Source of the DNA: Hormiphora californensis
Taxonomy: Eukaryota > Animalia > Ctenophora
Direction: 5' to 3'
NCBI GenBank assembly: GCA_020137815.1
Contig: CM035350.1
Span: forward strand, 7,068,001 to 7,132,000
Length of the DNA stretch: 64,000 bases
The notes beneath the pieces were generated by a model, which worked only from the letters and a program-made list of their open reading frames with translations, had not been told where the DNA came from and did no database searches. Made by a program: the position numbers and the translations under genes. Position 1 is the stretch's first letter; every line of letters starts with the position of its first letter. Positions 29,676-52,599 of this stretch are shown in pieces.

Positions 29676-31381
29676 AAATATCGCACGCGCACGAGTTGAG
29701 GGGTGAACAGTTGAATAAAAATGGACTTTATTGCAGACTGGGGTTGGAATGCGCTGCAGCCCCCTCATGCGCGCACCCCCGCAACGAGGGGACTGGAGGG
29801 AATGCCGCGCGCGCGTTTGGCCTGAGCCCGGCTGGGTCGAAAATAACTTTGCGGTCGAAAAAACGGCGGTGCTTATAACTTTGGCCCCTGAAGTCCGTTT
29901 TGCTTGATTCTTTCACTAGCTGTTAGATCTGACAATTATCTACCTTGCTGTTTTTGAGAGAAGTTAATTGGACTTGAGGAGGCTGAGCAATAGCCGTTCA
30001 AAGATTGGTTGTTTTCAAAAAGTGACGTCACAGGTCCCTGCAGGGACACTTTGTTTCAAATTTGAATTAAAATCTCGAAATTTTTTATTTTACCGCACTC
30101 GATTTTGCGGAGTTTGGTTCATATCTCCTGTTCCTGATAAGATAGAGACCTGAAACCGGTTGCATTTGAAAGCTGTTATCTTCTTCTTTCCAACGCTACC
30201 AAAACGATTTCTGTACCCTATCTGGAACCGGAGATATGATTGATTATGTATTCCCCCCCCCCCAGGCCCCAGCGCGGTATTCCCTCCAGGCCCCTTATAT
30301 TATATTATAAGGGGCCTGCAACGTATGCCAACTTCTGGGGCTCCTCGCGGTCTCCCAGCGCCTCTAAATGTGGTTTTGATTTATCTTGATTTAAAAATTA
30401 GCAGCACACTCGGGACTAAGAGCTGTTTTGATCTGTAATTGGTCGCCGTGCTCGACCTGAACATTTCCATGGTAACTCATGAACTGTCTGGGCTCTCGCG
30501 GGGTCGACCCGGCTTCAGATTTGAGCAAACTTTCACGTGTTTTAAGAATCACAACGGGATCTGCCGCCGCTAAAAAAGAAGTTAGTCTCTTGTCCCACCG
30601 CACCGGGTGACGTTCGGCACTACGCAGAGCGACGTCAGCAATCGGATCACGCTGTGATGATTTGTCCTCTATTATGCTTGGATCCACTGTGACAGATCTC
30701 TGGTCCACAGATCTCTGATCTTATTAGTACCGTTCTGTAAGATAGGTGGTGCTTCATGTCGATGTTATGTTAGCAGCACCTCCGTAGGAAGTTCAGCTTC
30801 CTCTGCGAATTGTTTATACTACTGCACAGTCGTAACGGCACTGTTGATATAACGTGCTTCTTTTTATCTACGGACTACGTATGGCGTGATTATTTGGGTG
30901 AACCCTCTTCTTAAATGAACTTAAGTACAAATCAGGGTGTTCATATAGCCATCAAATTTCACGAGTCAATGTTCTCCCGTTTATGCCTTCCCCAATATCA
31001 CAGTACGGGGTTAATAACTTTTAAATCACGTGACTAGCACATGTGATGTCTCCGCTATATTGTTACTGTGGATATTACATACCTTCCCTCTCCGCCTGCT
31101 GTCGTACCCGAATATTATATTCCCATTATTCACAAGGAGTTTAACTCTCGTGTCTCTCTCTCTCAGATTCTTCTGAATGATATTCTATCTGGCTAATGTC
31201 GAAATTTGATTCTTCCTTATCTCCAGCAGTTTTGGATTTCTTTTTTGTACCCGAACCCTTTGTTTGTTTTCCGTGTTCCACCACGTATCCTCTCCCTATT
31301 GCCACATTGTTGTTTCCACCCCGTCCGCCACAATATATTGTTATTCTATTCACACTATTCTTTCTAATTCTTTCTCTAGCT

Positions 31382-32047
31382 ATGGTTGTTACCCTAGGGT
31401 ATTGGGGTATCCGTGCACTGGGTGAGCCTGCTCGACTTATTCTCCGATATGTTGATGCAGACTGGACTGAGACGACCATCCCGCCTACCAAGGAGGGTGC
31501 TGGTATGTGGTTTGGGGGCTTGAAACAGAGTCTCGGCCTCGACTTTCCCAACCTCCCCTACCTGATCGATGGAGAGGTGAGGTTAACTGAGTCGACAGCA
31601 ATATACCGGTATCTGGGTAGAAAGTACGACCTCATGCCTGGAGATGTTATACGAGGCGACCTGGCAGAACAGCTTGTCACTGGACTGCGAACCTACATAA
31701 CCAAGATAGCGTATAGTGGGGAGTTTGAGAAATCAAAACCTCGGTTTGTTACCCTCATCAACACTAGACTTGCTGAGTTTACCAAGTTCCTGGGCGATGG
31801 CCCCTTCCTTTTCGGAGACAAAGTCACCTACGTAGATTTCATGGCTTTTGAGTTTTGGGATCAGTGTCGCCGATTGAGTCCCGATAGTTTTGAAGGGATG
31901 AATGTGGTAAATGGGTACTTGGAGAGGGTTGCAAACCTGCCTAGAATTAAAGAGTGGATTGAGAGTGAAGACTGTACGAGGAAGACGTACAGCATCAATT
32001 CACCACTTTGCGCATGGCCTGGCTTTCCCGAAGAAGTAAACAAATAG
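31382..32047 (+). CDS. Glutathione S-transferase, mu-class-like, copy 1 (intronless)
   Basis: MVVTLGYWGIRALGEPARLILRY, LGLDFPNLPYLIDGEVRLTESTAIYRYLGRKY and GDKVTYVDF. The likely ATG at 31382 follows a pyrimidine-rich AG. Confidence 0.93.
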   Translation: MVVTLGYWGIRALGEPARLILRYVDADWTETTIPPTKEGAGMWFGGLKQSLGLDFPNLPYLIDGEVRLTESTAIYRYLGRKYDLMPGDVIRGDLAEQLVTGLRTYITKIAYSGEFEKSKPRFVTLINTRLAEFTKFLGDGPFLFGDKVTYVDFMAFEFWDQCRRLSPDSFEGMNVVNGYLERVANLPRIKEWIESEDCTRKTYSINSPLCAWPGFPEEVNK

Positions 32048-32221
32048 ATGTTAATCAAATTTTTAATGTTTCATCGTTTTTAATTGTTTGATTTTATGTT
32101 TAACTTTTGTTGCTGATTAATTTTATGATAATTAGTAAAGTATTATGTAATGATTTATAATATATTATTTAATGTTTAATACCACATCTTAAAGTTGTTT
32201 AATATAGTCTCTAACACCCAA

Positions 32222-33574
32222 TAGGCCAGTCATATGACGTTGTGAAATGGAACTAATTGATCTAAAAGTGATTCCACTTCCAGGGCACTTCAATGGGTCT
32301 CTACAACCACCAAAAAAATTTACCGCGGGTACTGCGATGGAGAAATCGGTCATTTCCGGGTTTATTTTGCACCTGCATAAAGATAGCCTAGGACGAATGC
32401 GATATACGGTAAAAACCGTCTTTGGAAACAAGTAGAAAAGAAATCAAGGGCACTAAAGTGTGTAGCGTCCTCGCATTAGTGGGGGTAGGTGCTGGAATTA
32501 AGTCTCTATCTTATCACGTTAATTAGATAATTGGATAATTAGATGCGCACATAGCCGTTTTATGGTTATACGGTAAAAACCATCTTTGGAAAGGAGTAGA
32601 GAAAAAACCGAGGGTACTAGAGTGATCAGCGTCCTCGAATTAGTGGGGGTAGGTACCCAAATTAAGTTCCTATCTCATCGCGTTAATTAGATAATTGGAT
32701 AATTAGGTATGCGCATAACCGTTTTTAGGTTACATGGCTATAGCCACTTAGGAATGGTTTAGAGACTTTTCATTGGTGCCATTTTGTAGGCAATAGCCAA
32801 GTTATGGGGGGTCGAAGTCGGACTTTTAAGCTCTATATTCAACCATTTAGCCGTTATATGGCTTTAAAGGTGCTCAAAATCGGTCTTTTTACCACTTTTT
32901 TGCTCATTTTGAGCACCTTATATGCCAAATAACGGCTAAACGGTTGAATATAGAGCTTAAAAGTCCGACGTCGACCCCCAATAACTTGGCTATTGCCTAC
33001 AAAATGGCACCAATGAAAAGTCTCTAAACCATTCCTAAGTGGCTATAGCCATGTAACCTAAAAACGGTCATGCGCATACCTAATTATCCAATTATCTAAT
33101 TAACGCGATGAGATAGGAACTTAATTTTAGTACCTACCCCCACTAATTCGAGGACGCTGATCACTCTAGTACCCTCGGTTTTTCCTCTACTCCTTTCCAA
33201 ATATGGTTTTTACCGTATAACCATAAAACGGCTATGTGCGCATCTAATTATCCAATTATCTAATTAACCTGATAAGATAGAGACTTAATTCCAGCACCTA
33301 CCCCCACTAATGCGAGGACGCTACACACTTTAGTGCCCTTGATTTCTTTTCTACTTGTTTCCAAAGACGGTTTTTACCGTATATCGCATTCGTCCTAGCC
33401 TATATTTATGCAGGTGCAAAATAAACCCGGAAATGACCGATTTCTCCATCGCGGTACCCGCGGTAAATTTTTTTGGTGGTTGTAGAGACCCATTGGAGGG
33501 CCCTGGAAGTGGAATCGCTTTTAGATCAATTACTTCCTTTTTCAGCGATATATCGACGTCATATGACTGGCCTA
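32222..33574. mobile_element. 1.35 kb palindromic MITE with TAG..CTA termini and a 3 bp TSD (Academ-like)
   Basis: caa|taggccagtcatatgacgt...acgtcatatgactggccta|caa. The uninterrupted site aacacccaaccatccc is present in the duplicated unit at 34561-34576. Confidence 0.85.
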
Positions 33575-33729
33575 CAACCATCCCTTTGAAATATCAAATA
33601 TCTAACACTCCCATCTTTCTCTCTCCAACTAATATCTCCATCCCCCTATTGCCACATTGTTGTTTCCACACCTTCCGCCACAATATATTGTTATTATATT
33701 CTCACTATTCTTTCTATCTCTCTATAGCT

Positions 33730-34395
33730 ATGGTTGTTACCCTAGGGTATTGGGGTATCCGTGCACTGGGTGAGCCTGCTCGACTTATTCTCCGATATGT
33801 TGATGCAGATTGGACTGAGACGACCATCCCGCCTACCAAGGAGGGTGCTGGTATGTGGTTTGGGGGCTTGAAACAGAGTCTCGGCCTCGACTTTCCCAAC
33901 CTCCCCTACCTGATCGATGGAGAGGTGAAGTTAACTGAGTCGACAGCAATATACCGGTATCTGGGTAGAAAGTACGATCTCATGCCTGGAGATGTTATAA
34001 GGGGCGACCTGGCAGAACAGCTAGTCACTGGACTGAGAACCTACATAACCAAGATAGCGTATAGTGGAGAGTTTGAGAAATCAAAACCCCGGTTTGTTAC
34101 CCTCATCAACACTAGACTTGCTGAGTTTACTAAGTTCCTGGGCGATGGCCCCTTCCTTTTTGGAGACAAAGTCACCTACGTAGATTTCATGGCTTTTGAG
34201 TTTTGGGATCAGTGTCGCCGATTGAGTCCCGATAGTTTTGAAGGGAAGGATGTGGTAAATGGGTACTTGGAGAGGGTTGCAAGCCTGCCTAGAATTAAAG
34301 AGTGGATTGAGAGTGAAGACTGTACGAGGAAGACGTACAGCATCAATTCACCACTTTGCGCTTGGCCTGGCTTTCCCGAAGAAGTAAACAAATAG
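33730..34395 (+). CDS. Glutathione S-transferase, mu-class-like, copy 2 (recent tandem duplicate of copy 1)
   Basis: Nearly identical to copy 1, differing at only a few residues (R/K, MN/KD, N/S). The flanks are also duplicated. Confidence 0.93.
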   Translation: MVVTLGYWGIRALGEPARLILRYVDADWTETTIPPTKEGAGMWFGGLKQSLGLDFPNLPYLIDGEVKLTESTAIYRYLGRKYDLMPGDVIRGDLAEQLVTGLRTYITKIAYSGEFEKSKPRFVTLINTRLAEFTKFLGDGPFLFGDKVTYVDFMAFEFWDQCRRLSPDSFEGKDVVNGYLERVASLPRIKEWIESEDCTRKTYSINSPLCAWPGFPEEVNK

Positions 34396-34617
34396 ATGTT
34401 AATCAAATTTTTAATGTTTCATCGTTTTTAATTGTTTGATTTTATGTTTAACTTTTGTTGCTGATTAATTTTATGATAATTAGTAAAGTATTATGTAATG
34501 ATTTATAATATATTATTTAATGTTTAATACCACATCTTAAAGTTGTTTAATATAGTCTCTAACACCCAACCATCCCTTTGAAATATCAAATATCTAACAC
34601 TCCCATCTTTCTCTCTC

Positions 34618-34800
34618 CAACTAATATCTCCATCCCCCTGATCTAGCGCCCTCAAACTAATATCTCCTTCCCCCTTCATCTAGCACCCTCAAACTAATAT
34701 CCCCCCTATCTAGCACTCTCTAAGTTCAAACTAATATCTCCTTCCCCCTGATCTAGCACCCTCAAACTAATATCTCCTTCCCCCCTGATCTAGCATCCTC
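34618..34800 (+). repeat. Tandem repeat of about 36 bp (caaactaatatctccttccccctgatctagcaccct) just upstream of the third GST
   Basis: About five degenerate copies, each with ctaat, a pyrimidine tract and TAG. Confidence 0.8.
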
Positions 34801-34809
34801 CTCTACACC

Positions 34810-35457
34810 ATGGAACTTGGATACTGGGCACTTCGGGGGCTAGGGGAGCCCAGCAGGCTGCTCCTCAGATATAAGGGTGTCGAGTTTAAGGATGCTACCA
34901 TTCCCCTGACTGACGAGGGAGCTGGAAAGTGGTTCGGTGAAACTAAGGAGAATCTCGGTCTGGACTTTCCCAACCTTCCCTACCTTATTGATGGAGATGT
35001 CAAGATCACTGAGTCCCTCGCCATTATCAGGTACCTGGGCCGCAAGTTTGATATGATGCCGGATGACCTTGCCAAGGGAGACATGATGGAATTGGTGATC
35101 CAGTCACAGAGGATGGACCTCGGTAAAATCTCGTACAGCGCTGATTTTGAAAACCTCAAAGAGGGGTTCATCACAAAGTTGAAAGTCTTCCTGGAGAGGT
35201 TTGCGAAATTCGTTGTCAAGCCTTTCATCTTCGGAAGCAAGGTCACCTACATTGATATCTTGGCGTACGAGTATCTGGATCATATCCGGGCCCTGACTCC
35301 GGAAAGTTTCACTGGTGAGGTGAGTGAGTACATGCAGCGGGTTGCAGATCTGCCCAACATCGCTGAATGGTTGAAGAGTGAGGAGTGCACCAACAAAACC
35401 TACACCATCAACTCTCCTAAAGCTCCCGGCTGGCCTGGCTTCCCCAACAAGGCTTAG
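34810..35457 (+). CDS. Glutathione S-transferase, mu-class-like, copy 3 (older paralogue)
   Basis: MELGYWALRGLGEPSRLLLRY, LGLDFPNLPYLIDGDVKITESLAIIRYLGRKF and GSKVTYID. Confidence 0.93.
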   Translation: MELGYWALRGLGEPSRLLLRYKGVEFKDATIPLTDEGAGKWFGETKENLGLDFPNLPYLIDGDVKITESLAIIRYLGRKFDMMPDDLAKGDMMELVIQSQRMDLGKISYSADFENLKEGFITKLKVFLERFAKFVVKPFIFGSKVTYIDILAYEYLDHIRALTPESFTGEVSEYMQRVADLPNIAEWLKSEECTNKTYTINSPKAPGWPGFPNKA

Positions 35458-36675
35458 AGAGGACTGTATTATCATGTTTAGCGTTCTGTATAACTCCGTT
35501 GTTTAGGAGGTTTTAGTCACTTTGTGTTTATTGCTATATTTAGCAAGCTTAAATAGGTTCAGAAGACATCTTTTTATGTGTGCATTATAATTCAATCTTC
35601 ATTTACTTAAATTTAAGACACATTTATCGAACAACTTAGTTTTGAATTGTATCCACACAATAGCGACATAACTAACTCCTAACACCTGTACAACCTCTCC
35701 AGATGAATGTAGTGGTGATGGTGGTCCTCGTCCTGCTCTCCCTATTTCTCCTCCTGTGTTTCACACTGTTCCTCTTCCCGACTCTCCTTCACAGGCTCCA
35801 TATGCCACCCTCACTCCACTTTGCGGCACATCGGGGTGGCGCTGGGGAGCGGCTTGAGAACACAATGGCCGCATTTGATAATGCCGTTAGTTTGGGGGTG
35901 GATATGTTAGAGATAGATGTACAGTTGACCCTAGATGGGGTAGTTGTCGTTGCCCATGACAATCAACTAGGTAGAATCACGGGACAAGTCGGTCTAATCT
36001 CAGAGACAGAATTCACTGATTTACCCCCCTTGAACAATAATTTACGGCTCCAGTTTGATTCTGTGACATGTTTAAGTCCTCAAGAGGACAGGTCGTTCTG
36101 TACTTTAGATGCTCTATTCACCCGGCACCGTGATATTACAATCCATATAGACACCAAGGGAGGGGAACGGGATTTGGTTGAGGCAGTTTCAGATCTGGTT
36201 GAGAAACATGGTCGCTATGGTAACACAATATGGGGTAACATGAGCGAGAAAGGAGCTGAAGTTGGGAATGATGTTAACCCTCGTGTTTTAGAATTCATGT
36301 CTATTAGACGGGTGATCCTCACCTACATTTCCTTCTACACTGGCACTCTTGGTCTGGTTCCTATCAGGGCCTGTGTAATGGACATTCCTTTACCGGCGGT
36401 TGTTTTCAGACAGTTTAAAGACTATCTTTCAACTCCACAGCGAGTTTTACTTCACGTATTGGGTTTCCTCCTCATGAACAGGGTCCTCTTCTGGCATCTC
36501 AGGAGACGGGGGATCAAAGTTGTGGTGTTTGTTCTTAATAGGGAGGAGGAGTTTAAAGAGGCGGTGGGATGGGGTGTTGATGGGATTCAGGCTTTTCGGC
36601 ACTACTTTAAACAAATTAATTTGAGGACGCAATGTTCTTGGATTAACAGCCTGTTTTAGCCATGGAGTTTTAGGA

Positions 36676-38136
36676 ATGGTTGTTAACAACGCCTCCAACA
36701 TGATTCTAGACAACACACCTCTAGAGGAAGTCTTTACCAGGGTATCATCGCCCGTGTTGGAGAGGATTATACAGATTGTACAAAAGGAGCTAGAGAGGCG
36801 TAAGAGAGATGGAGTACCAGAAAAGGATCCGAATCAGTTTGTTACCCACCACGGGAGATATGTTTCTGATGAGGACCTCGAGATGATGAAATGGGAAGTA
36901 GGAGGATTAACTGGCAAGAATACCTGGCTAACTAACACTGGGTGTCCCTACGGGTGGGCCAATGTGGACCTGGCACCCAAGGACATAGCTAAATACCCGA
37001 ACATCGATAAGCTGATGGGGAGGATTAACAAGGAACAAGGGACTGAGTTTAACTCCTGCCTAGTCACTAGATACAGAAAAGGGGACGGCGTGGGATACCA
37101 CTCAGATTTCGAGACTTCGCTGGTGGACAACTCACCCATCACCGTCGTGACCGTCGGCAACGACGGTGCTGTAGATTTCATTCCCTACCTTGGAGATGGC
37201 AGGATGCGGCCTAAGCTGTCTATAACCACTAAGGATGGTGAGGCGTACACCATGAAGCCAGGGTGCCAAGAGCACTTTAAGCACCGTGCGCAAAAGGTTG
37301 AGCATGGCGTGAGATATGCCCTGTCTTTTAGGAAGAGGCACAAAACATCGCCTCCAGAACCAACTCCACCTGCACCAACCCCAGCTAAGTCCCAGAAGGT
37401 GCCCCAGTTCGCAGTACACCCGTCTCGGGTGGAAGCTCCAGCATCACAGATGACTTTGTCGCCAACCTCGCCGCCTGCCGTAGATGGGTATCAGGAAGAG
37501 AACTCTGTACTCCCTACCAGATCGCCCCTTCTACCAACACCAACACTGCCGAACCCCAGACCGACACCAAGGACACTTCTACTAGGAACCAGTATGACGA
37601 AGTGGATCCACGAGGACCCGGCGCTAGTGAACATCTCGATTTCAGGGGCGAGACTTTGTAGGCCGAATGAGAACTGGAGGGGGAGTTTGGCTATGGATAT
37701 GTTGAAAGGACTGGAAGTAACGCACCCATGTCTAGAGGTTAATAAGGTTATTTTGGCGTTTGGGACCAATGACATCAGATATTGGGGAGGGTTTGTAAGG
37801 TCGAGTAAGGGAAAAGGGAGTGTGTATAAGGCATATGTAGATTTAGTTAGGGAGGTTAAGAGAAGGTTTGGGGAGGATACCGAGATCGTTCTCGCTACGG
37901 TTATCCCTCTCAGACCTGATAGTGGTTGGATAGCGAGTAACGTGTTCATGTTCAATCGTATTGTGATGAGTGTAGGAAGGTCTTTGAATTGTGTAGTTTC
38001 GGATTGGACAATTGAGTTTTTAAATAATGAACTTAATTTTAATAGTGTTTTATTTTCGGAGGACGGAGTACACCTCAACAGTAATGGGTACAATGTGTTA
38101 AATGAGATTATGTATGAGGAGTTAGTTTTTAACTGA
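36676..38136 (+). CDS. LINE ORF1: short helical/coiled-coil N-terminus, AlkB-like 2OG-Fe(II) dioxygenase, Pro-rich linker and SGNH/GDSL esterase
   Basis: AlkB motifs: FNSCLVTRY, GYHSDFE (HxD), ITVVTVG, CQEHFKHR (distal H) and RYALSFR (Rx5R). SGNH blocks: LLLGTSM, ISGA, FGTND and EDGVHLN. Confidence 0.85.
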   Translation: MVVNNASNMILDNTPLEEVFTRVSSPVLERIIQIVQKELERRKRDGVPEKDPNQFVTHHGRYVSDEDLEMMKWEVGGLTGKNTWLTNTGCPYGWANVDLAPKDIAKYPNIDKLMGRINKEQGTEFNSCLVTRYRKGDGVGYHSDFETSLVDNSPITVVTVGNDGAVDFIPYLGDGRMRPKLSITTKDGEAYTMKPGCQEHFKHRAQKVEHGVRYALSFRKRHKTSPPEPTPPAPTPAKSQKVPQFAVHPSRVEAPASQMTLSPTSPPAVDGYQEENSVLPTRSPLLPTPTLPNPRPTPRTLLLGTSMTKWIHEDPALVNISISGARLCRPNENWRGSLAMDMLKGLEVTHPCLEVNKVILAFGTNDIRYWGGFVRSSKGKGSVYKAYVDLVREVKRRFGEDTEIVLATVIPLRPDSGWIASNVFMFNRIVMSVGRSLNCVVSDWTIEFLNNELNFNSVLFSEDGVHLNSNGYNVLNEIMYEELVFN

Positions 38137-38264
38137 TATCTTGATTTATAATATGAAATTTAATGATAACAATTCTCTGGGGTTTGGGGGCCGAGTTTTC
38201 ATCATTGTCCCCCAATTTCCCCATTTGTTAACCCATTCCTGAACCCTAAACCCATTCCCATTCA

Positions 38265-41200
38265 ATGATCAGTGTCGAACAATACAGAAAAGCTATTGGG
38301 GGTTTTGCGGGGGGTCTGGCTGGGGGGAAAAGGATAAAAATTGACAACACCGACAATAACAAAAGACAATACAATGAAACGACAGACATACTAATCTATC
38401 ATTTCCTCATATATATTTGTTACACAATTCTAATGATAGCTCTTTTAGGAATAATGCTCAGGAGTACCCCTCCACCCGTCAAGTTCAGAAAAGAAGGCCA
38501 ACTTGTGTCTTTTGATCTAAACTCATCATATATTTGGTATGCTAATTGTGTCCTATTCCTCTTCTTAGTCAAAGGTATGAGATATAGTAAGTATGCATAT
38601 CGATGTTATAAAAAGTTTAGGATTGCAGGCATTAATTTGTTCAAAGTCAGATGCAGATATACTATACTTGTTATGTTTGTTATGTCGTTAGCGAAAATGC
38701 TACTACTGAGAAGCCATCCTGACATCATTAATCCAGGGCCTGATAAAAAGTTGAACTTAGTGTATTGTAATGTTAACGGTCTGATAAAGATGCACACAAT
38801 AGGTGGGGATCAGCCTGAATTTCAGGCCTCTAAACTTAGGGATCTAAAAGCATACTTATTCACCTACTCGCCCGATATCGTTGTTTTAAATGAAACTTGG
38901 CTGAATAAATATATTAGTGAAGGGGAACTTATATCAGATAAATATTACTCTATATTTAGAAAAGACCGCACTGAGAAGGATATGAAAACTTTTAGTAAAA
39001 AAGGAGGTGGAGGAGTTTTAATACTATGTAAAAACAATATTGGAGTTGAGACAGAGTTAGTTAAAACGAAGACCGATTTACCAATAGTTACTATTCTTCT
39101 AAAGCATAAAAATATAGCACCCATTTGTATCTCGACATTTTATAGATATGATTATTCTGGATCGGAACACTTCAAAGAGGCGGAACGTTACTATACTAAT
39201 CTTGCCAAGAAGTTTAAGAATCTCACTATTATAGGGGATCTAAACCTAAGTTCGGTGGATAACTGGGACGTCCCAGTGTCAAATAATAGTACTCATGAGA
39301 GTTTTATCAATTTATTTTTATCTCTAGGCCTAAAATCTCTAGTTAATGTACCAACGCATAGGGATGGAAATATTCTCGACTTAATACTTACTAACATAGA
39401 AACTACTTATTCTAATGTTTTGCTCGAAGAGAATAGTCTTGTAAAGTCGGACCATCTTACACTAAAATGTGAGATAAATCTCAAAAAATCACGCCCTAAG
39501 TATAAAAATTGTAAGAAATTCTCCTATAGAAAAGCTGATTGGGACTCTCTAAATGAAGAGCTTTTAGGAATTGATTGGTTAGGACAGTTCAAGGATCTGT
39601 CAGCAGAGCAGTCCCTACAAGTCTTTAAGTCTAGGTTAGACATTGCACTACGTCATAATGTACCATTAGTCAATGTAAAAATTGGATCACAGCCACCTTG
39701 GTATGATGAAGAACTACGCCAACTTAAGAAATCGTTCGATAACTCTAGAAAAGCCTTCTTGAAAAATATAGATAGTATTGTTGCTAAAGAGGAATACGAA
39801 CTCAAAGAACATCAATACAGAACACTAGCAATAGAGAAAGAAACATCCTTTCTCGAGCTTTCCTCTATAGATGAACTTACACCAAATGCTAATGTATCAA
39901 AGAAATTTTTCAAACACGTAAAGTCCAAAACGAATAGCACTAGAATTCCTGAGAGAGTATACTTTAATAATAAATTTAGCTCTTCGAGTCGTCGTAAATG
40001 TGAAATGTTCAATGAATTTTTCTGTAATCAATTCACTGAATCTAGCACCTACAAAGAAACTGTTGATATTGATAGAGATCACACTAATGATTTTAACTCT
40101 GAGATATTTAGATTTGATGAGATTCTAAAGATTCTAAAAAAGTTGGATGCGTCAAAAGCAACAGGTCCAGATAATATTGATGGTGTTGTACTTAAGAAAT
40201 GTCATAAATCCCTAGCTTATCCACTCACCCTTATATTTAATAAATCATACTCAGAGGGATGTATACCAACAGAATGGAAAACCGCGAACGTTGTCCCAGT
40301 TTACAAGAAAGGGGAACGATCATGCGTTGAGAATTATAGGCCTATATCCCTGACTTGCCTTGTTATGAAAGTTTTTGAGAAATTAGTAAGAGAACGCCTG
40401 TATAAAGCCTGTCTAGAAAAAATAACTCCCTACCAGCATGGTTTTGTACCCTTGAAATCATGTACGTCACAACTGATTGAGTTTAATTGTGAATTAGCGT
40501 TGAACATAAATAACCGAAATCAAACTGATATAGTTTACTTTGACTTTCAGAAAGCATTTGATAGTGTATCTCATGATGTAATAATAAATAAGCTGAAAAA
40601 TGAGTTTAATTTAGGAGGTAAGATGTTGCGTTTCCTAATGAATTATTTATCTGGTAGGCAACAGAGGGTTGTGTTAGATGGGGATTTTTCAGAATGGGTA
40701 GAGGTTAGGAGTGGAGTTCCACAAGGATCAATACTAGGTCCTTTCTTGTTTGTGTTATTCATAAATGATATTGTTAATGTTTTAAGAGAAGATGATCTAA
40801 CTAAAATTAGGCTATATGCAGATGATCTGAAAATTTGGCGGGTTATAAATAGTGAAGAAGATAGTTTGCAGCCCGACATCGATAGTTTAGTGGAATGGGC
40901 AAAGGATAATAAAATGATATTCCATCCTAAAAAGTGTAAGCTGCTTAGGTGTACTAAAATTATTAAACAACGTCAATTAAATTATCACCTAGGCAGAGAT
41001 GAAATCAAATTATGTGAAAATGAAGTTGATCTAGGAGTCTCAACTAATCACAAGTTGTCGCCAATCGAACACCAGAAAAATGTTGTTTCCAAAGCTTCTC
41101 AAAGATTAGGACTGGTGAAGCGTGTAGGCGTATTAGTTAAATGTCCCCTTAAAAAGAAGAACCTCTACATTAGTCTAGTTAGATCTTTGTTCGAACACTG

Positions 41201-41678
41201 TAGCCAAATATGGCGTCCACAAAGTGAGTCAAGTCTGCTTAAGTTTGAACGACTCCAGAAACGTGCCACAAAATGGATATTCGGTGAAACAGATACCAGT
41301 TATAGTTTAGATACGTATATAAAGAAACTCAGGGAGATTGACGTACTCCCAATGACTCAAAAATTTCAATATAATGATCTTAAATTGTTCCATAAAATAT
41401 TCTATGAGACGTCTCCTATAAAACTCCCATCTTTCCTACAAAAATACAATCCGGAATTACATGACAGACGTGCCACCAGACAACAAACAAAACGAGACAG
41501 TACGGACATTATATGTACCGAACAACCCAGAGTAGACCTGTTCAAAAACTGTTACTTTTATCGCTGCCACCTTGAGTGGAACTTACTTCCTAAAGAACTG
41601 AGAAATACAGCTGAACACCATTTATTTTCCTCTAGACTGAAAGACCATCTCTGGAAAGCCTTACACGACATAACTTAA
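38265..41678 (+). CDS. LINE ORF2: hydrophobic leader, APE endonuclease and reverse transcriptase (no RNase H)
   Basis: APE motifs: YCNVNGL, VLNETWL, GGGVLI, IIGDLN, ILDLIL and SDH. RT motifs: KATGPDNI, NYRPISLT, QHGF, DFQKAFDSV, GVPQGSILGPFLF and LYADD. Confidence 0.97.
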   Translation: MISVEQYRKAIGGFAGGLAGGKRIKIDNTDNNKRQYNETTDILIYHFLIYICYTILMIALLGIMLRSTPPPVKFRKEGQLVSFDLNSSYIWYANCVLFLFLVKGMRYSKYAYRCYKKFRIAGINLFKVRCRYTILVMFVMSLAKMLLLRSHPDIINPGPDKKLNLVYCNVNGLIKMHTIGGDQPEFQASKLRDLKAYLFTYSPDIVVLNETWLNKYISEGELISDKYYSIFRKDRTEKDMKTFSKKGGGGVLILCKNNIGVETELVKTKTDLPIVTILLKHKNIAPICISTFYRYDYSGSEHFKEAERYYTNLAKKFKNLTIIGDLNLSSVDNWDVPVSNNSTHESFINLFLSLGLKSLVNVPTHRDGNILDLILTNIETTYSNVLLEENSLVKSDHLTLKCEINLKKSRPKYKNCKKFSYRKADWDSLNEELLGIDWLGQFKDLSAEQSLQVFKSRLDIALRHNVPLVNVKIGSQPPWYDEELRQLKKSFDNSRKAFLKNIDSIVAKEEYELKEHQYRTLAIEKETSFLELSSIDELTPNANVSKKFFKHVKSKTNSTRIPERVYFNNKFSSSSRRKCEMFNEFFCNQFTESSTYKETVDIDRDHTNDFNSEIFRFDEILKILKKLDASKATGPDNIDGVVLKKCHKSLAYPLTLIFNKSYSEGCIPTEWKTANVVPVYKKGERSCVENYRPISLTCLVMKVFEKLVRERLYKACLEKITPYQHGFVPLKSCTSQLIEFNCELALNINNRNQTDIVYFDFQKAFDSVSHDVIINKLKNEFNLGGKMLRFLMNYLSGRQQRVVLDGDFSEWVEVRSGVPQGSILGPFLFVLFINDIVNVLREDDLTKIRLYADDLKIWRVINSEEDSLQPDIDSLVEWAKDNKMIFHPKKCKLLRCTKIIKQRQLNYHLGRDEIKLCENEVDLGVSTNHKLSPIEHQKNVVSKASQRLGLVKRVGVLVKCPLKKKNLYISLVRSLFEHCSQIWRPQSESSLLKFERLQKRATKWIFGETDTSYSLDTYIKKLREIDVLPMTQKFQYNDLKLFHKIFYETSPIKLPSFLQKYNPELHDRRATRQQTKRDSTDIICTEQPRVDLFKNCYFYRCHLEWNLLPKELRNTAEHHLFSSRLKDHLWKALHDIT

Positions 41679-42277
41679 TTCGCTGCTGTGGTGTGGGCCC
41701 CTTTCTCTTCTTTTATCTTTACAGTAACTGTCCTTCTTCCGCACATAGCTTACATTGTACTCAAATTGAAGGTTTGGAGTGGTGTTGAACAGTTTGAAAC
41801 AAGATGGTGGACCCGCACCACAGATGTGAATTATAACTGATCTTAACATCTACCCAACAGTCGACATGACGTTAAATTCGGGGTATGGTTCATGGGGGAC
41901 TGGGAGGGAGGTAGGGGATTGGGAATCAAGGGTAAGTATTAAGTATAATTGTTATTATTAATGAGTGAAATAAATTTAGCTTACAACTAGTATAAGAGTG
42001 TGTTTTAGCCTTATAGCTACTTTTTTTAAATATTTTTAAATGAGTTTTTTAAGACGTAAGCACTCGCGCCTTAGGCTGCTAAACTATTAGTAAGAGTCAG
42101 TCGGGTATTTATTTAATGTGCAATTTGTACGTTTATATAATATCTTTTCAAATCAAAATCAAATCATGACGGACTATCCGACAAAGTTGAAGGAGTTTTT
42201 GGAAAGGAGTGATGAAAATACGAGGTGTATAGAACCTGAGCAGTGAACAAATCGTGGTGTGTTATTGTTATTGATTA

Positions 42278-42499
42278 CAGTGGTCATCCGACATAATTGC
42301 CACATCTCGACGTGAACTTCGACGTGGAATTCGACGAGAAATAGCAGGCGTTTGTAGTTATGAACGCCTGCTGTGCGCGGCAGATTGGCACGTGCGGCAT
42401 GGGCAGCAGGCGTTCATAACTACAAGCGCCTGCTATTCCTCGTCGAATTCCACGTCGAAGTTCACGTCGAGATATGGCAATTATGTGGGATGAACACTG
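42278..42499. mobile_element. 222 bp hairpin MITE with TTA flanks
   Basis: tta|cagtggtcatccgacataattgcc...ggcaattatgtgggatgaacactg|tta, with arms of about 95 bp. Confidence 0.85.
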
Positions 42500-44183: not shown

Positions 44184-46251
44184 ATGTTCAGGGCGGTTCA
44201 GGTACTGAGGGTGAGTTCACCCAACCTGTGGGCTACCCAGATGGCGTACAGCGCTCCACGATTCTCCTCCACGATTATTTGTAAGTTATTTTCTGGGATG
44301 GATGGTGGTGCATCCTTTGCGCTTGTCAGCTCAGTGACTTGTTGTGAATTGGTACGCGCGCCCACCCCGCCATAATAAAACCATCATATTTCAGCAGTGC
44401 GCGCGCGGCATTATGTCCCTCAGCTGTGCTGTTTTCCAGATTTCGTATGTGACTTGTGCATGCTGAATAACTGCATATATTATCAGTGCAGTGTTGTGCA
44501 TAAAGACACGATTTATGTACTCTAATGTAACATACCTTATCTTTCAGCTAGTCGGAGGTTTGATTCTAATGTTGGAGACACTGGAAACAGGATTCTGGCT
44601 AAGTTTGGAACACCACGACAACTATCCGATGGGGCTGATAAAAAGCCAAGGAAGAAGAAGAAGAAGGGCAAGAAAGATCGATCGGTGAAAGAGGTTATGG
44701 ACAACGTGAAGACGGAGCAAATTGCGGCAGCTGAGGCGGCAGCAGCAGAAGTGGCGGCAGCAGAAGCGGCAGCAGCAGAAGCCGCAGCAGCTGAGGCGGC
44801 AGCAGCAGAAGTCGCAGCAGCAGAAGCGGCGGCAGCAGAAGCGGCAGCAGCTGAGGCGGCGGCAGCAGAAGCGGCAGCAGCAGAGGCGGCAGCAGCTGAG
44901 GCGGCAGCAGCAGAAGCGGCAGCAGCTGAGGCGGCAGCAGCAGAAGCGGCAGCAGCAGAGGCGGCGGCAGCAGAAGCGGCAGCAGCTGAGGCGGCGGCAG
45001 CTGAGGCGGCAGCAGCAGAAGCGGCAGCAGCTGAGGCGGCAGCAGCTGAAGCGGCAGCAGCTGAAGCGGCAGCAGCTGAGGCGGCAGCAGCTGAAGCGGC
45101 AGCAGCTGAAGCGGCAGCAGCAGAAGCGGCAGCAGCAGAAGCAGCAGCAGCTGAGGCGGCAGCAGCTGAGGCAGCAGCAGCTGAGGCGGCAGCAGCAGAA
45201 GCGGCAGCAGCAGAAGCGGCAGCAGCTGAGGCGGCAGCAGCAGAAGCAGCGGCAGCTGAGGCGGCGGCAGCAGAAGCGGCAGCAGCTGAGGCGGCAGCAG
45301 CAGAAGCGGCAGCAGCAGAAGCGGCGGCAGCTGAGGCGGCGGCAGCAGCAGAAGCGGCAGCAGCAGAAGCGGCAGCAGCTGAGGCGGCAGCAGCTGAGGC
45401 GGCAGCAGCAGAAGCGGCAGCTGAGGCGGCAGCAGCAGAAGCGGCAGCAGCAGAAGCGGTGGCAGCTGAGGCGGCGGCAGCAGAAGCGGCAGCAGCAGAA
45501 GCGGCAGCAGCTGAGGCGGCAGCAGCAGAAGCGGCAGCAGCTGAGGCGGCAGCAGCAGAAGCGGCAGCAGCTGAGGCGGCAGCAGCAGAAGCGGCAGCTG
45601 AGGCGGCGGCAGCAGAAGCGGCAGCAGCAGAAGCGGCAGCAGCTGAGGCGGTGGCAGCTGAGGCGGCAGCAGCAGAAGCGGCAGCAGCTGAGGCGGCGGC
45701 AGCAGAAGCGGCAGCAGCTGAGGCGGCAGCAGCAGAAGCGGCAGCAGCTGAGGCGGCAGCAGCTGAGGCGGCGGCGGCAGCAGAAGCGGCAGCAGCTGAG
45801 GCGGCAGCAGCTGAGGCGGCTGCGGCAGCAGAAGCGGCAGCAGCTGAGGCGGCGGCAGCTGAGGCGGCAGCAGCTGAGGCGGCGGCAGCAGAATCAGCAG
45901 CAGCTGAGGCGGCGGCAGCAGAATCAGCTCGGAAGGCCCAAGTGATGGAAGATGCGAGAGCGGCAGTTTTGTCTGGAGTTGACCCTGTTAAAGATGCCTT
46001 TACTGCCCTCCTCAGAGATCTTGATGTTGATGCTCTTCCCGGTAAGATTCATGTTGCCAGAACTCCAAATTTTGATTAGAAATGACTACTTCATGTTACT
46101 TGTATTACTAATTAATATGTTTCTAACCCCTCTCTCCCTCCCAGGTCTGTCAGAGGAGATACTGGTGGCTCACCAGGCTGATCTGGATCGAGTTAAGAAG
46201 ATGTACGGGGATGCTGATGACATTGACTCTTTCCCTGCCTTTAAATTTTGA
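44184..46251 (+). CDS. ATP5PF: Mitochondrial ATP synthase coupling factor 6 (F6)-like protein with a very long Ala/Glu repeat. Exons 44184-44280, 44548-46041 and 46145-46251 (565 aa).
   Basis: Exon 1 resembles a mitochondrial presequence (MFRAVQVLRVSS..). The introns are phase-compatible GT-AG. The C-terminus DPVKDAFTALLRD...LDRVKKMYGDADDIDSFPAFKF matches the F6 pattern DPIQKLF.DKIRE...L.KLKQMFG..DMNTFPTFKF. Confidence 0.72.
44724..45929 (+). repeat. Coding tandem repeat, 15 bp unit encoding EAAAA, about 80 copies
   Basis: Units are ga(a/g) gcg gca gca gc(a/t). Variant units are 12 or 18 bp, so the frame is preserved. Confidence 0.95.
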
Positions 46252-48453: not shown

Positions 48454-50259
48454 TTATTCCGTTTCGTCCGCCACGCCTTGCTCTTGATCTATGATTGCCG
48501 TTCCTTCGTTTATCCTGCTGTCCTGCAGCAGTGACCCTCTAGTTTCCCTCTGCATGAACATAACCGTGATGCATGCCACTATTTCAACAAATATGAAGCA
48601 GTATATTGAGTACCCGAGATCATACTCATCCAGGTAGGTCGTCAGGAAGGTTCCAGCAGCAGCCCCCAACTTTCCTATCCCGTTCTGGACTCCGATGGCT
48701 GTTGCTCGCATATAGGTGGCGTAGAACTCAGGGGCATAGATCCACAGCACTTCATTATATGCTGCATAGAATATCACACACGCAAAGAGCTCAACGTAGG
48801 TCAGGTAGGAATTGAGGCACCACAACAGCAAGATAGTCGCAGCAGCACCGAAATAGATTGCCACAACAAAAGTCCACCTTCTGCCAATATACTCTGCAGT
48901 GATCGTAGCACCAAGTTGCCCGGGCATGTACATGACCGCAATAATAATCAGGAACAAGTACTCCGATTTGGTATAGACAAGGCACCCCGATGCGTCTATA
49001 AAGGTTGAATCGAACCACAGTTCCATGTCACAATAATCATACGTCATCATGTCAGGGATCAACATGCTGATACCAAACACTAGGAACATGTTACAGATGA
49101 AGTGAATGGTGATCTGAATACTACCACATGTGTGTGGTTTAGCCCAGATATCCGCATACTCACCATTCCGGACATCCTCCACATAGATATCACCCCGGGG
49201 CACCTCAACTTCATTCTGAGCACAGATCTTCTGAATCACCTCTACTGCCTCCTCCTTCCGGCCGTTAATCACCAGGTATCGGGGTGATTCCAGCATAAAG
49301 TGCAGGAATACCAGCATTATTGCCACTGGCAGGGCCGTCAGAAGGATTTGTAAACGCCACCCATTCTTCATATCCATGACAAAGAAAGCTATAACACACT
49401 CGTATACGGACCCTGCTGTCCAATAGAGTGCTAATACAAACATGGTCCAGGATCGCCGTGTGGAGGGCATCACTTCCTGGGAGTAGACGATTGAACAGCT
49501 GTAGTTGCCTCCTATCGTGAACCCTACAATCGCCCTGCACACCAGGAAGAAGTAGTAGGAGGGAGCAAAGGCGGAACATATCGCTGATATTACCAGCACA
49601 TAACTGTTGATGAGGAGGACCCAGAAACGTCCAAACTTGTCCGCCAACTTTCCGGAGGTTATGCTGCCTATGGCGTAGAAAATGTAGACTATTGCCGGAA
49701 TCATTGCCTTCTGGAAGCTTGACAAATGCCACTCACACTTGAGATTCTTTATGATGATGGTTGCCAGCCAGATCTCAGCGGCATCTGCAAAGGACATTAT
49801 CCCCATGACCAGCATCACCTTCTGTTGATACCAGCCCCATCCAGATATCTCGATCACATCATTTACATCATACAGATCGTCCGGTACCTCGAACTCCCTC
49901 CCTGCTGGTTTGGTTGGAGGTGGGGTGGGAGGCGGTTTCTTTTCATCAGCCGCTTGCGTAGAGTCTGCTTTGGTTGGTTTTGGTGTTTTTGGTGTTTTCG
50001 GTGTGCTGGATGAACTGCCTCTAGGTGGTACTGGAGGGGAAGTCCTTCTGTTGGGATTATCCTCTGATTGGTAGAGCCGGTGTCGTAGCTGTGCTAGGCT
50101 GGCCATTACCCCTCCTCCTCCTCCTCCAGGTCCCTCAGTAGCCCTGTCGACCGGGCTGTCAGGCCCCTCAAATGGTGCCGAGCCAGCTCGACTGTGTCTT
50201 TGTCGTATCAGATCAAGAGAGCTCACATTGCTGCCAGTCTCTCCAGTTCCTTCAGGCAT
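48454..50259 (-). CDS. SVOP/SV2-related MFS transporter, paralogue 1 (intronless)
   Basis: YDVNDVIEISGWGWYQ, FADAAEI, LKCEWHLS, GKLADKFGR, QEVMP..R, ESPRYL and YAPEFYATYMRATAIG, with about 12 hydrophobic segments. This is the SVOP-like pattern. Confidence 0.9.
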   Translation of the reverse strand: MPEGTGETGSNVSSLDLIRQRHSRAGSAPFEGPDSPVDRATEGPGGGGGGVMASLAQLRHRLYQSEDNPNRRTSPPVPPRGSSSSTPKTPKTPKPTKADSTQAADEKKPPPTPPPTKPAGREFEVPDDLYDVNDVIEISGWGWYQQKVMLVMGIMSFADAAEIWLATIIIKNLKCEWHLSSFQKAMIPAIVYIFYAIGSITSGKLADKFGRFWVLLINSYVLVISAICSAFAPSYYFFLVCRAIVGFTIGGNYSCSIVYSQEVMPSTRRSWTMFVLALYWTAGSVYECVIAFFVMDMKNGWRLQILLTALPVAIMLVFLHFMLESPRYLVINGRKEEAVEVIQKICAQNEVEVPRGDIYVEDVRNGEYADIWAKPHTCGSIQITIHFICNMFLVFGISMLIPDMMTYDYCDMELWFDSTFIDASGCLVYTKSEYLFLIIIAVMYMPGQLGATITAEYIGRRWTFVVAIYFGAAATILLLWCLNSYLTYVELFACVIFYAAYNEVLWIYAPEFYATYMRATAIGVQNGIGKLGAAAGTFLTTYLDEYDLGYSIYCFIFVEIVACITVMFMQRETRGSLLQDSRINEGTAIIDQEQGVADETE

Positions 50260-50409
50260 GGCCGAGAGAAATCACAAGTTTATGAGACGTAGCATATATT
50301 GCGAGTGTTTGTAAACGCAGCACAACAAGACAACACGGGAATATGAGGATGTGCTTACACACGTTCCGATTTCCCTCTCTCCCGTTATCTCTCTCGCTCT
50401 CTTTCTTTT

Positions 50410-50510
<101 letters not shown>

Positions 50511-50668
50511 CTCTCCTTCTTTCTATCTCCCAGCCTCTCTCTCTCTCTCTCTCTCTTTCGCTCGATGGTGAACATCCTTAATACAAAGGGTTTGAACAAA
50601 ACAAGGGATATTACTATCATTCACTAAAGGTTTATTTCAAAAGTTATAATCTAACAGATATCGCATAT

Positions 50669-52271
50669 TTATTCAGTCCCGGTGCAGCTCCCGTAAGTTT
50701 CTTGTGGTTCTTCATCTTGTAGTATGTTTTCACTGCTTCGAGTGTCCCACAGTAATTGTCCCATAGTTTCTCGTTTCCTAAAACACGCCGTTACACAGCT
50801 GACAACCTCCACAGCCACGTAAAAATACACCACATAATGGTCCTCGGAATCATCGAAAAACGTTGTCAGAAACGTCGCCACCGCGGCACCCAACCTTCCA
50901 ATGCCGTTTTGAGCTCCAAATGCAGTTCCTCGCATATATGTCGCATAAAACTCAATAGCGTATAGGAAGATCACCTCATTGTACGCCCCGTAAAAGAACA
51001 CACAACCAAATATTATGGTGTACATTTGGGAGATACTCCAGCAAAAAGCCAGCATCAATGTAAAGGCTGCTCCTGCGTAAACTGCTACTATGAACGTCGC
51101 CCTTCTTCCAACAGATTCAGAAAGTAAGCTGCTGCGACCAAGCATTCCTGGGAGAAACACGAGCGTTGTAACCATGAGAAACTCGAATTCTGCCTTCGTG
51201 TACACAGTGCACCCTCCTGCATCGATATAGGTGGTATTAAACCAAAGATTCATATCGCAATAGTTATGACTCATCATCAGGGGTATCAACATAAGCATTC
51301 CACTCACGAGGAATATGTTGCAGAAAAAGTGTATCGTGATCTGAATACTGCCACTTGTATGTGGCTTTGCCCAAATTTCCGAAAATGCACCGTTTCGCTC
51401 GTCTTGCACGTATAGTTCTCCTTTTATGTGTTTGATCTTATTGTCTCTACACATTTTCTCCAAGACCTTTTGCGCTTCTTCTTTTCGGTTAGTTGATGAC
51501 CAGATACCTCGGGGACTCGTCCATGAAATGCATCGCCGCCAGAATAACAAAGATGGGCAAGGCTGTCAAGAAGATTTGGTATCTCCACCCGTTACTCAAC
51601 TGCATGACACAAATTGCAACAAAACACTCATATATACCTCCCGCAGCCCAAAACAGGGCTAGGAAGAGAATGTTCCACGATCTAAACTTGGCTGGCATAA
51701 ACTCTTGGGCGTAGATAACAGAACAGGCGTAATTCCCACCTACGCAAAACCCTACAATACTCCGAACGAAAACGTAAAAGTAGTAGTTAGGTGCAAAGCC
51801 GGAGCAAATTGACGAAATAAGCAATGCGTAAATGTTAATCATAACTACCCAATAGCGACCAAACTTATCTGCAAAGTATCCCGATGTCATGCTTCCAATG
51901 GCATAGCAGATGTTAATCGAGGAGGGTATGGCCGCTTTTTGAATACTTGACAGGATCCACAGACACTCCAGGTTGGGAATTATGATTGTCTGCAGCAACA
52001 GTTCAGCACAGTCGGCAAAACAAGCAGCACCCATGACAAGGAGAACTTTGTACTGACACCAGCCCCATCCAGCCCGCTCAATGACATCATTTACATCGTA
52101 TCTAATGACCTGTGAGCCATGGGAGTCCGTGTGAATTCCCAGATACTCAGGACGGTTCGGAATTTCAGGGCACTCCTCAACTAGAGATTGAAATCTAACG
52201 TGTTTTGGATGGTGATCATGTAGTGCAGCACCGTTCGATGGTCCCGGCTGGGCGGGGGATTCATCTGGCAT
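50669..52271 (-). CDS. SVOP-like MFS transporter, paralogue 2, with a +1 frameshift near 51491 (error or pseudogene)
   Basis: Two overlapping ORFs join into a full paralogue. There is one extra base in atc aac t aac cga relative to the paralogues. The likely start is MPDESP at 52271. Confidence 0.8.
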
Positions 52272-52599
52272 CTGGGTCTCCACATAAACAACAATATAAT
52301 AACTCGAATTATATTATAGCAAAGAAATAGTTGATTCCCTCAATATACAAACAGACCCCTTATCACACGATTAACAATGCATCAAGTAGTGAGGCCATGT
52401 AACGAAATTACCCCTCGTAACTAAGACATTGTAGTAAAAAAGCCCGCAAGGTAGGGGCTGGGGTAATTTCGTTACCAAGCCATGACCCATGTTACAAGTA
52501 CTAAAGCAATATTAATCATAACCAATCCTGGAACTACAGAGCAATATAGAGTGTTTTTTTTCGAGAATTCGACTTCTTTTTTATCTTCTTCTTTTCTTC

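Follow-up and report, generated by a model that had tools for sequence, protein, structure and literature searches.

In the ORF1 protein of the ZfL2-1 element, an N-terminal coiled coil is combined with an Arg-rich motif and with an esterase, which binds phospholipids and does not bind RNA (PMC3905857). The CR1 group of long interspersed nuclear elements (LINEs) comprises CR1, L2, Rex1, Daphne, Crack and Kiri (PMC13343379). Plant RNA viruses carry AlkB domains, dioxygenases that use Fe(II) and 2-oxoglutarate (2OG), that repair 1-methyladenine (m1A) and 3-methylcytosine (m3C) and prefer RNA (PMC2553587). Ty3/Gypsy (Ogre/Tat) elements of the orchid genus Phalaenopsis carry a paALKBH5-like open reading frame (ORF), recent and limited to this one genus, with demonstrated activity on N6-methyladenine (m6A); an AlkB in a retrotransposon is therefore not new as such (PMC9289625). 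Here we describe a retrotransposon without long terminal repeats (non-LTR) in the ctenophore Hormiphora californensis, in which an AlkB domain and an SGNH esterase are part of the same ORF1 protein. The element lies in a 64,000-nucleotide stretch of contig CM035350.1 (positions 7,068,001 to 7,132,000), which we call the window and to which all coordinates refer.

We found that ORF1 encodes both domains above the Pfam cut-offs. The family 2OG-FeII_Oxy_2 (PF13532) matched residues 78-211 with 48.4 bits (cut-off 31.2; E 1.7e-12). Residues 318-473 were matched by Lipase_GDSL_2 with 39.5 bits (cut-off 32.9; E 1.1e-9). No further Pfam family was found on ORF1 at E<=0.1, including RRM, CCHC and PHD, and an NCBIfam scan of ORF1 gave no match. 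The AlphaFold model of ORF1 contains helices at residues 16-45, an AlkB fold at 49-223, a disordered linker at 225-295 (predicted local distance difference test, pLDDT, below 50) and an SGNH fold. Modelled alone from 94 sequences, the AlkB domain reached a pLDDT of 97.5. A preliminary description of the locus had proposed this fusion, with AlkB at about 36840-37335, a Pro-rich linker, an esterase retaining Ser, Gly, Asn and DxxH, and no RRM, CCHC or PHD motif. Each of these points is borne out, with slightly wider limits for AlkB. The coding features, all on the plus strand, are as follows.

36676..38136, plus strand: ORF1, 486 amino acids (aa), starting at ATG 36676 in a frame open from 36625 to 38136
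36721..36810, plus strand: two conserved amphipathic helices, aa 16-45, heptad-like with a basic end (AlphaFold model, hydrophobic periodicity)
36820..37344, plus strand: AlkB / Fe(II)-2OG dioxygenase domain of ALKBH2/3 type, aa 49-223 (Pfam, AlphaFold model)
37345..37560, plus strand: Pro-rich disordered linker, variable in length and sequence (AlphaFold model, family alignment)
37561..38133, plus strand: SGNH esterase with S306, G324, N365, D463 and H466 (Pfam, family alignment)
38250..41678, plus strand: ORF2, 1142 aa, an open frame with its first ATG at 38265 (Pfam Exo_endo_phos and RVT_1)
about 38769-39455, plus strand: apurinic/apyrimidinic-type endonuclease (APE) in ORF2
about 40305-40985, plus strand: reverse transcriptase (RT) in ORF2, with YADD at 40815

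The heptad-like hydrophobic pattern of the N-terminal helices was retained in 71 sequences, and in the model they form a candidate multimerisation or RNA-binding part. The best SGNH match of the family profile was the ZfL2-1 ORF1 esterase (4c1b, E 3.6e-16), level with a bacterial esterase (4.4e-16). Like the esterase-type (type IV) ORF1 proteins of ZfL2-1 and other CR1-L2 elements (PMC3905857; PMC4120745; 4c1b), the Hormiphora protein combines N-terminal helices, a poorly conserved linker and a C-terminal S-G-N-D-H esterase, has no RRM or CCHC, and is accompanied by an APE-RT ORF2. Unlike them, it has an entire AlkB domain between helices and esterase. It reads as an esterase-type ORF1 protein with an AlkB domain placed after the helices.

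The orchid Gypsy elements resemble this element in carrying a fixed AlkB-family dioxygenase with intact cofactor ligands (PMC9289625). They differ in being LTR elements in which the enzyme has its own ORF and belongs to the ALKBH5 clade, whereas here it is fused into the ORF1 protein of a non-LTR element, is of ALKBH2/3 type and is deeply diversified. Wording on AlkB, oxygenases or 2OG is absent from the main texts of PMC4120745 and PMC13343379, and AlkB wording from those of PMC3905857, PMC6431247 and PMC12859917. Full-text literature searches found no AlkB-bearing LINE; subscription papers were thinly covered, and Repbase/Dfam may already note the domain in Mnemiopsis elements. The novelty suggested in the preliminary description is thus narrowed by the orchid elements, although their ALKBH5-like enzyme has a separate ORF. 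The ctenophore family is a new variant of the esterase-type ORF1 protein and a new host class for parasite-borne AlkBs.

The domains belong to an intact LINE, as had been proposed: ORF2 is open and contains Exo_endo_phos and RVT_1. Its 160-aa leader has a hydrophobic stretch (38388-38462) and a degenerate 2A-like NPGP/HPGP motif at 38730, and such a leader is also found in L001 and P0195. A metagenome search gave 85 pattern matches, of which two, L001 and L002, were confirmed as relatives. In L001, an AlkB-SGNH ORF1 that is 30% identical to ours is followed after 139 nt by an intact APE-RT ORF2 that is 40% identical to that of the window; L002 ends too early to show what follows its ORF1. Among protein models, P0195 (1443 aa) is a fused AlkB-AlkB-SGNH-APE-RT form, and P0134 is AlkB-SGNH-APE. 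A search for fused forms of 981-2800 aa found none in 6045 candidates, which is weak evidence since the 1443-aa P0195 exists.

The element is an APE-type non-LTR retrotransposon by its ORF1 and APE-RT ORF2, its lack of LTRs, its repeat tail and its empty site. It also has the anatomy of the CR1 group: its ORF1 carries an esterase, both RNase H and a C-terminal CCHC are missing, the tail has no poly(A), and a 2A-like NPGP precedes the APE. We take these traits to be marks of that group. All 14 Protein Data Bank matches of the RT were to L1, R2 and group II RTs.

We found that the AlkB-SGNH arrangement is widespread and conserved. A word-index search returned 15 proteins with 27-87% identity, and 13 of these carry both Pfam domains; H142, D144, E146, H203, R213, R219, S306, G324 and N365 are invariant across the 16 aligned sequences. 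An exhaustive search yielded 680 representatives of 50%-identity clusters at E<=0.001 (190 at <=1e-10). AlkB and SGNH are both present in 109 of the best 150 representatives, always in the order AlkB then SGNH. Another 34 of these have AlkB only and seven SGNH only; many are short fragments or have a weak Pfam esterase match. Other copies linking AlkB, esterase and APE-RT, which the preliminary description had suggested looking for, therefore exist.

We took a census of catalytic residues in 166 proteins (the 16 aligned, 148 further representatives and the two loci L001 and L002), keeping AlkB and esterase domains that cover at least 115 and at least 150 profile positions, respectively. The H-D-H-R-R set was complete in 140/144 AlkB domains, including both copies of tandem forms; one of the 144, P0185, lies outside the family. 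The S-G-N-D-H set was complete in 90/106 esterases (S 103, G 105, N 106, D 93, H 104). The AlkB domains have a median identity of 33% to each other. Tree distances of AlkB and esterase were correlated across 84 proteins (Mantel r 0.81, 0/999 permutations), with only 29/81 splits in common.

The sequence has also been under purifying selection. The ratio of nonsynonymous to synonymous substitution rates (dN/dS), calculated for one pair from 40 of its 70 differences, was 0.15 over codons 11-163 and 0.11 over AlkB codons 49-163 (p 5e-9). The partner was a relative in public sequencing runs X7 and X12 whose implied amino-acid changes match 13 of the 14 P0002 differences in range. The neutral decay that the preliminary description had named as a way of failing is not seen. 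These results support the conclusion that the AlkB-SGNH ORF1 is real, conserved and selected, that it belongs to an intact LINE, and that it is no one-off capture.

Five of the best 150 representatives (P0078, P0091, P0116, P0141 and P0166) form a subfamily in which two AlkB domains stand in tandem ahead of the esterase; one of them, P0078, comes from Mnemiopsis leidyi. The esterases of P0133, P0137, P0156 and P0175 have weak, below-cut-off matches to Pfam OSK (Oskar SGNH-like; E 5e-5 to 9e-4).

The hosts that could be named are all ctenophores. Among 30 relatives looked up, six clusters carried an organism name, Pleurobrachia bachei (2) or Mnemiopsis leidyi (4), and the family thus occurs in cydippid and lobate ctenophores. 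The top clusters in the Atlas carried the same two domain families, and the phylum, where recorded (1-3 members), was Ctenophora. An AlkB tree was built from 35 sampled family rows and, as its only outgroups, five prokaryote or phage sequences; it contained neither eukaryotic nor RNA-virus rows. One long-stemmed branch (99/99) held 34 of the 35 family rows. The long-branched P0185 fell outside, and an approximately unbiased (AU) test forcing all 35 rows together gave p 0.47. P0185 is a stand-alone AlkB of 171 aa with equivalents of ALKBH2 Arg110 and Asn159, and is the nearest non-family match in the best 150.

A donor of the AlkB domain was not found, with the tree limited to those five outgroups. 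The nearest viral folds are RNA-virus polyproteins, in the lead, and giant-virus AlkBs, at only 12-24% identity; Atlas neighbours of the AlkB family are phage and giant-virus clusters. Viral contigs gave 10 pattern matches and no relatives. Prokaryote genomes gave 32 pattern matches and no relatives, in a single-protein query that detects close relatives only. Phages (6 records) and plasmids (17 records) had stand-alone AlkBs only, at 25-31% identity. Like the AlkBs of plant and invertebrate RNA viruses (PMC2553587), the ORF1 domain is compact, ALKBH2/3-like (group 1B-like), located in a replication-linked protein and equipped with the lid aromatics. Unlike them, it belongs to an integrating retroelement and has lost the Arg110 and Asn159 equivalents; its fold matches to them are only 17-24% identical, too little to point to a donor.

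By sequence and by structure, the ORF1 AlkB is closest to ALKBH2/3. The family profile matched ALKBH2 (E 1.2e-20) and ALKBH3 (E 1.2e-19), with the next AlkB-class chains at E>=0.07; ALKBH5 and FTO were absent among the best 60 matches. In the structural ranking, ALKBH3 (Z 20.6, root mean square deviation (rmsd) 2.2, 171 residues aligned) and ALKBH2 (Z 19.9) were tied at the top, followed by FTO (18.5), ALKBH6 (18.2), E. coli AlkB (17.6) and ALKBH5 (17.5). The fold match to human ALKBH2 structure 3bty had Z 22.7, rmsd 2.2 and 169 aligned residues. Together, these comparisons support placing the domain, as judged from sequence and fold, in the nucleic-acid-demethylase class of AlkB proteins.

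The metal ligands and the two 2OG-binding arginines are retained in ORF1 (H142 at 37099, D144, H203 at 37282, R213 and R219), as are E146 and the lid residues Y92 and W94. With the human ALKBH2 register taken from the alignment and residue numbers and roles from PMC12295762, Y92, W94, Y133 and E146 align with Tyr122, Phe124, Tyr161 and Glu175, of which Tyr122, Phe124 and Glu175 touch the damaged base (PMC12295762). Y92 is kept in 93/94 sequences, W/F/Y at position 94 in 94/94, and E146 in 139/144 domains. Two other pocket residues differ in this copy: ALKBH2 Arg110 corresponds to G80, and the 2OG-binding Asn159 to T131. The claim of the preliminary description that all catalytic signatures are present is thus right for the metal ligands and the two arginines and too strong for the pocket, as Asn159 aligns with T131 and not with the N of NSCLV. 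ALKBH2 also has a duplex-intercalating hairpin used in duplex sensing (PMC10816986, PMC12295762). This hairpin segment is missing from the Hormiphora copy, which has 11 residues there; three of five prokaryotic or phage relatives have 21-24 and two have 16. Its loss would fit a single-stranded substrate.

The ORF1 domain shares with human ALKBH2 and ALKBH3 the fold, the HxD..H and RxxxxxR motifs and the equivalents of Tyr122, Phe124, Glu175 and Tyr161. It differs in its identity of 21-23%, in lacking Arg110, Asn159 and the Phe102 hairpin in this copy, and in being mobile and esterase-fused. It presumably works like, but is not classified as, a canonical ALKBH2/3 member.

The element begins precisely with a copy of the spliced leader of ctenophores. 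The features of the RNA ends are as follows.

36586..36625, plus strand: ctenophore spliced leader copy at the exact 5' end of the element, 36/40 identical to the Hormiphora leader
36626..36675, plus strand: short 5' untranslated region (UTR) with two mini-ORFs (ATG 36632, 4 codons; ATG 36662, 3 codons)
41676..41833, plus strand: 3' UTR hairpin with arms 41676-41700 and 41809-41833 (fold z = -3.2, 0/200 shuffles)
41760..41800, minus strand: antisense spliced leader copy in the hairpin loop
42149..42162, plus strand: short CAAA(A)T-type tail without poly(A), running on into target ATC and too short for Tandem Repeats Finder (TRF)

The similarity covers the first 41 nt of the element and includes a 26-nt exact match to the Hormiphora leader sequence printed in PMC8527503 (0/100 shuffles). 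Many contigs have this stretch alone in common. Like ctenophore leaders, it falls within 35-48 nt, is about 90% identical, ends AATTTGAG and is multicopy, with loose contig ends at 36592/36625 in 4/4 runs. Contigs leading from the 3' part of the leader into ORF1 were present in runs X1, X7 and X12; those of X7 and X12 are the relative, 9% diverged. The simplest reading of this sequence is that the template RNA was trans-spliced and then copied to its very end, and the retained ...TTTGAG could act again as an acceptor. There are precedents for both steps: in dinoflagellate spliced-leader-tagged retrogenes the leader was likewise copied into DNA by retroposition (PMC12014239), and the SL1-spliced RNA of Cer1 likewise shows that retrotransposon RNA can be trans-spliced (PMC3315495). 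A second multicopy element shares the leader and 5' UTR up to 36660/36670 and then diverges (4/4 runs; reads at 36599-36670). It is possibly a sister LINE or a non-autonomous derivative.

The 5' leader and the antisense copy are predicted to form a 36-bp duplex (-42 kcal/mol, 8 G.U pairs; 0/500 shuffles), and the best leader pairing elsewhere on the plus strand of the window is -26.8 kcal/mol. In L001 the best pairing, at -19.6 kcal/mol, is no stronger than the shuffled mean of -20.8, so the duplex is not family-wide. It is at most a subfamily trait and may be a relic of an inverted leader insertion. Several leader mismatches are A>G on the element strand and preserve G.U pairs; they could be due to wobble tolerance or to A-to-I editing that retrotransposition has fixed. 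Upstream of ORF1, L001 (about 520-580) and L002 (about 30-90) have an AT-rich motif in common that ends in TTTTAG-GT; it scores 70.5, compared to at most 52 in 300 shuffles. The motif is not clearly a leader of the Hormiphora type, since its scores in that comparison were equalled by 62 and by 2 of 300 shuffles; it is perhaps a divergent leader of another ctenophore. Rfam gave no matches at E<=1 in 36500-42300.

The limits of the element were set by an empty site, and the insertion lies in sense orientation within the coding end of a GDPD gene.

36585..42162, plus strand: whole non-LTR retrotransposon, 5578 nt, delimited by the empty-site joint with a 2-nt AT ambiguity at the joints
35703..36584, plus strand (same orientation as the element): 5' part of the host GDPD gene (Pfam GDPD E 3.4e-28)
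42163..42246, plus strand: displaced last 27 codons and stop of the GDPD gene (sequence, empty-site joint, joined flanks)

The joint 36584>42163 was seen in read contigs of 3/4 public runs, and the flanks joined across it read ...GVDGIMTDYPTK... The GDPD frame is restored at the empty site, where the flanks continue as the end of the gene, ...GVDGIMTDYPTKLKEF... In the filled allele the last 27 GDPD codons are swapped for 24 codons read from the leader and UTR. The GDPD allele carrying the insertion is likely damaged. The filled 5' junction was spanned by none of the read contigs displayed, so the insertion is private or rare and rests on the assembly. A private or rare insertion fits a recently active family. 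Contigs of run X1 tile 36599-36979, 36951-37080 and 37051-38346 with 0, 0 and 1 differences. In that run the summed contig depth is about 30-50 in the flanks, 200-300 in ORF1 and 500-900 near the 3' end, which is in line with a 5'-truncated family, although depth is no copy number.

The window contains other features outside the element. A short inverted-repeat element at about 42262-42498, MITE-like (miniature inverted-repeat transposable element), is absent from one run X5 contig (joint 42261>42499). Three tandem glutathione-S-transferase-like ORFs, two of them nearly identical, lie at 31181-35457, and about eight intronless paralogous multi-pass transporter ORFs, MFS/SV2-like, at 48454-63333; both labels were given by eye. 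A 517-codon frame of EAAAA repeat at 44526-46079, with several frames open, is a tandem repeat or an alanine-rich helical protein.

What might a LINE do with an AlkB? m1A and m3C block reverse transcriptase. We suggest that the AlkB removes RT-blocking adducts of this type from the single-stranded RNA or first-strand cDNA of the element itself, a function that we place midway between doubtful and probable. In its favour are the retained ligands, purifying selection, the agreement between the two domain trees, the affinity to ALKBH2/3, the kept base contacts and the short hairpin segment of this copy. Plant-virus AlkBs of the same subgroup act in this way on the RNA genomes of their viruses (PMC2553587). 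The element RNA would arise from host or read-through transcription and be capped by spliced-leader trans-splicing, and full-length reverse transcription would copy the leader into DNA. The ORF1 protein would multimerise through its N-terminal helices, bind its own RNA in cis like other ORF1 proteins and coat the retrotransposition particle. AlkB, tethered in many copies on the 5.6-kb template, would oxidatively demethylate Watson-Crick-face adducts, and a larger share of insertions would be full-length as a result. The esterase would act as in ZfL2-1 (lipid or membrane binding, weak hydrolysis), a job separate from that of AlkB. The preliminary description had proposed either removal of RT-blocking lesions or escape from methylation-based silencing. 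Its demethylase-class AlkB stands. Of its two functions, repair of lesions agrees better with the data than erasure of m6A, since the domain resembles ALKBH2/3 and not ALKBH5 in both sequence and fold.

Several observations weigh against this repair function. Most LINEs thrive without an AlkB. In the structural ranking, ALKBH2/3 are ahead of FTO and ALKBH5 by only 2-3 Z units. An Arg110 equivalent is present in 1/71 family members compared to 5/5 outside relatives, and the Asn159 equivalent is Asn in 13/144 domains and mostly T or S. In ALKBH2, Arg110, which lines the pocket wall and contacts phosphate, and Asn159 contact each other and 2OG, and substituting R110 abolishes ABH2 activity (PMC12295762). 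Since both equivalents are lost and R110 substitution is inactivating in ABH2, the pocket has been remodelled family-wide, and the substrate perhaps differs from that of ALKBH2/3. The loop corresponding to the hairpin is longer and variable in most of the family (15-23 residues in 65/71, compared to 11 here), so the argument from a missing hairpin is strongest for this subfamily.

The remodelled pocket might also indicate that the AlkB serves counter-defence, erasing a host mark by which element RNA is sent to decay, granules or silencing. The mark could be m6A or another RNA methylation, methylation linked to the leader or cap, or a methylated cDNA base. An altered substrate would suit this idea, as would a trans-spliced leader on the element RNA, the third rank of FTO by structure (Z 18.5) and the orchid Gypsy elements, whose working m6A demethylase has the same proposed role (PMC9289625). 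We nevertheless consider it unlikely: the profile points to ALKBH2/3 at E near 1e-20, with ALKBH5 and FTO outside the best 60 matches, the ALKBH2-type lid is retained, and conservation is deep and steady across more than 100 lineages. The one pair tested (dN/dS 0.11) gives no hint of an arms race. We find it a little harder still to believe that the domain has 2OG oxygenase activity with a purpose other than demethylation, or serves as an RNA-binding module that keeps a structural metal site and replaces an RRM. Candidate jobs include writing of hydroxylated bases, protein hydroxylation, and repair of etheno (lipid-peroxidation) adducts near membranes together with the esterase. The lost Arg110 and Asn159 equivalents point this way, and the RNA-binding role is vacant, as esterase-type ORF1 proteins have no structured RNA-binding domain and the esterase binds no RNA (PMC3905857). 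The tandem AlkBs in five of the best 150 representatives also recall binding modules, in which duplication is frequent. However, the three metal ligands and both 2OG arginines are near-invariant (140/144), also in tandem copies, and purely structural domains would usually lose such ligands.

A further alternative is that a single copy picked up an AlkB exon of its host by chance, that the locus is misassembled, or that a host gene just adjoins a LINE. Such an origin might be suspected from the unspanned filled 5' junction, from a depth at 36540-36566 equal to that of the empty-site contigs in X1, X5 and X7, and from the few relatives in which ORF1-ORF2 linkage is directly visible. But contigs from independent assembly tile leader, ORF1 and ORF2 with 0-1 differences, the L001 ORF1 directly precedes an APE-RT ORF2, P0195 and P0134 are fused models, 109 of the best 150 representatives have both domains, and the empty site restores the GDPD frame. 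We regard this origin as extremely improbable. For the architecture it is refuted, and only the single insertion site rests on the assembly.

We offer, tentatively and with more doubt than belief, the following picture: an ancient, highly diversified ctenophore LINE lineage with a two-enzyme ORF1 protein, whose AlkB forms its own branch and would use its remodelled pocket on a modification of the trans-spliced RNA that acts as an RT block, whether the host puts it to use or is unable to avoid it. The element would be promoter-free and defined by trans-splicing, and in this subfamily the leader would pair with the antisense copy in the 3' UTR, closing the RNA end to end. If so, this would be the first LINE shown to have its own nucleic-acid-modifying repair or counter-defence enzyme.

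The catalogue of LINE ORF1 proteins contains RRM, CCHC, PHD, esterase and unclassified types, and an oxygenase appears in none of the surveys consulted. With the ctenophore LINEs, AlkBs are found in three independent kinds of RNA-phase parasite, the other two being plant RNA viruses and orchid Gypsy elements; the AlkB of the LINEs is of a different subfamily from that of the orchid. A compact AlkB whose pocket is altered may accept a new range of substrates and find use as an RNA-modification tool. A selected dioxygenase in more than 100 divergent LINE lineages of one early-branching phylum would imply that template methylation or alkylation limits retrotransposition, and it raises the testable question of whether RNA lesions or host marks are a cause of LINE 5' truncation.

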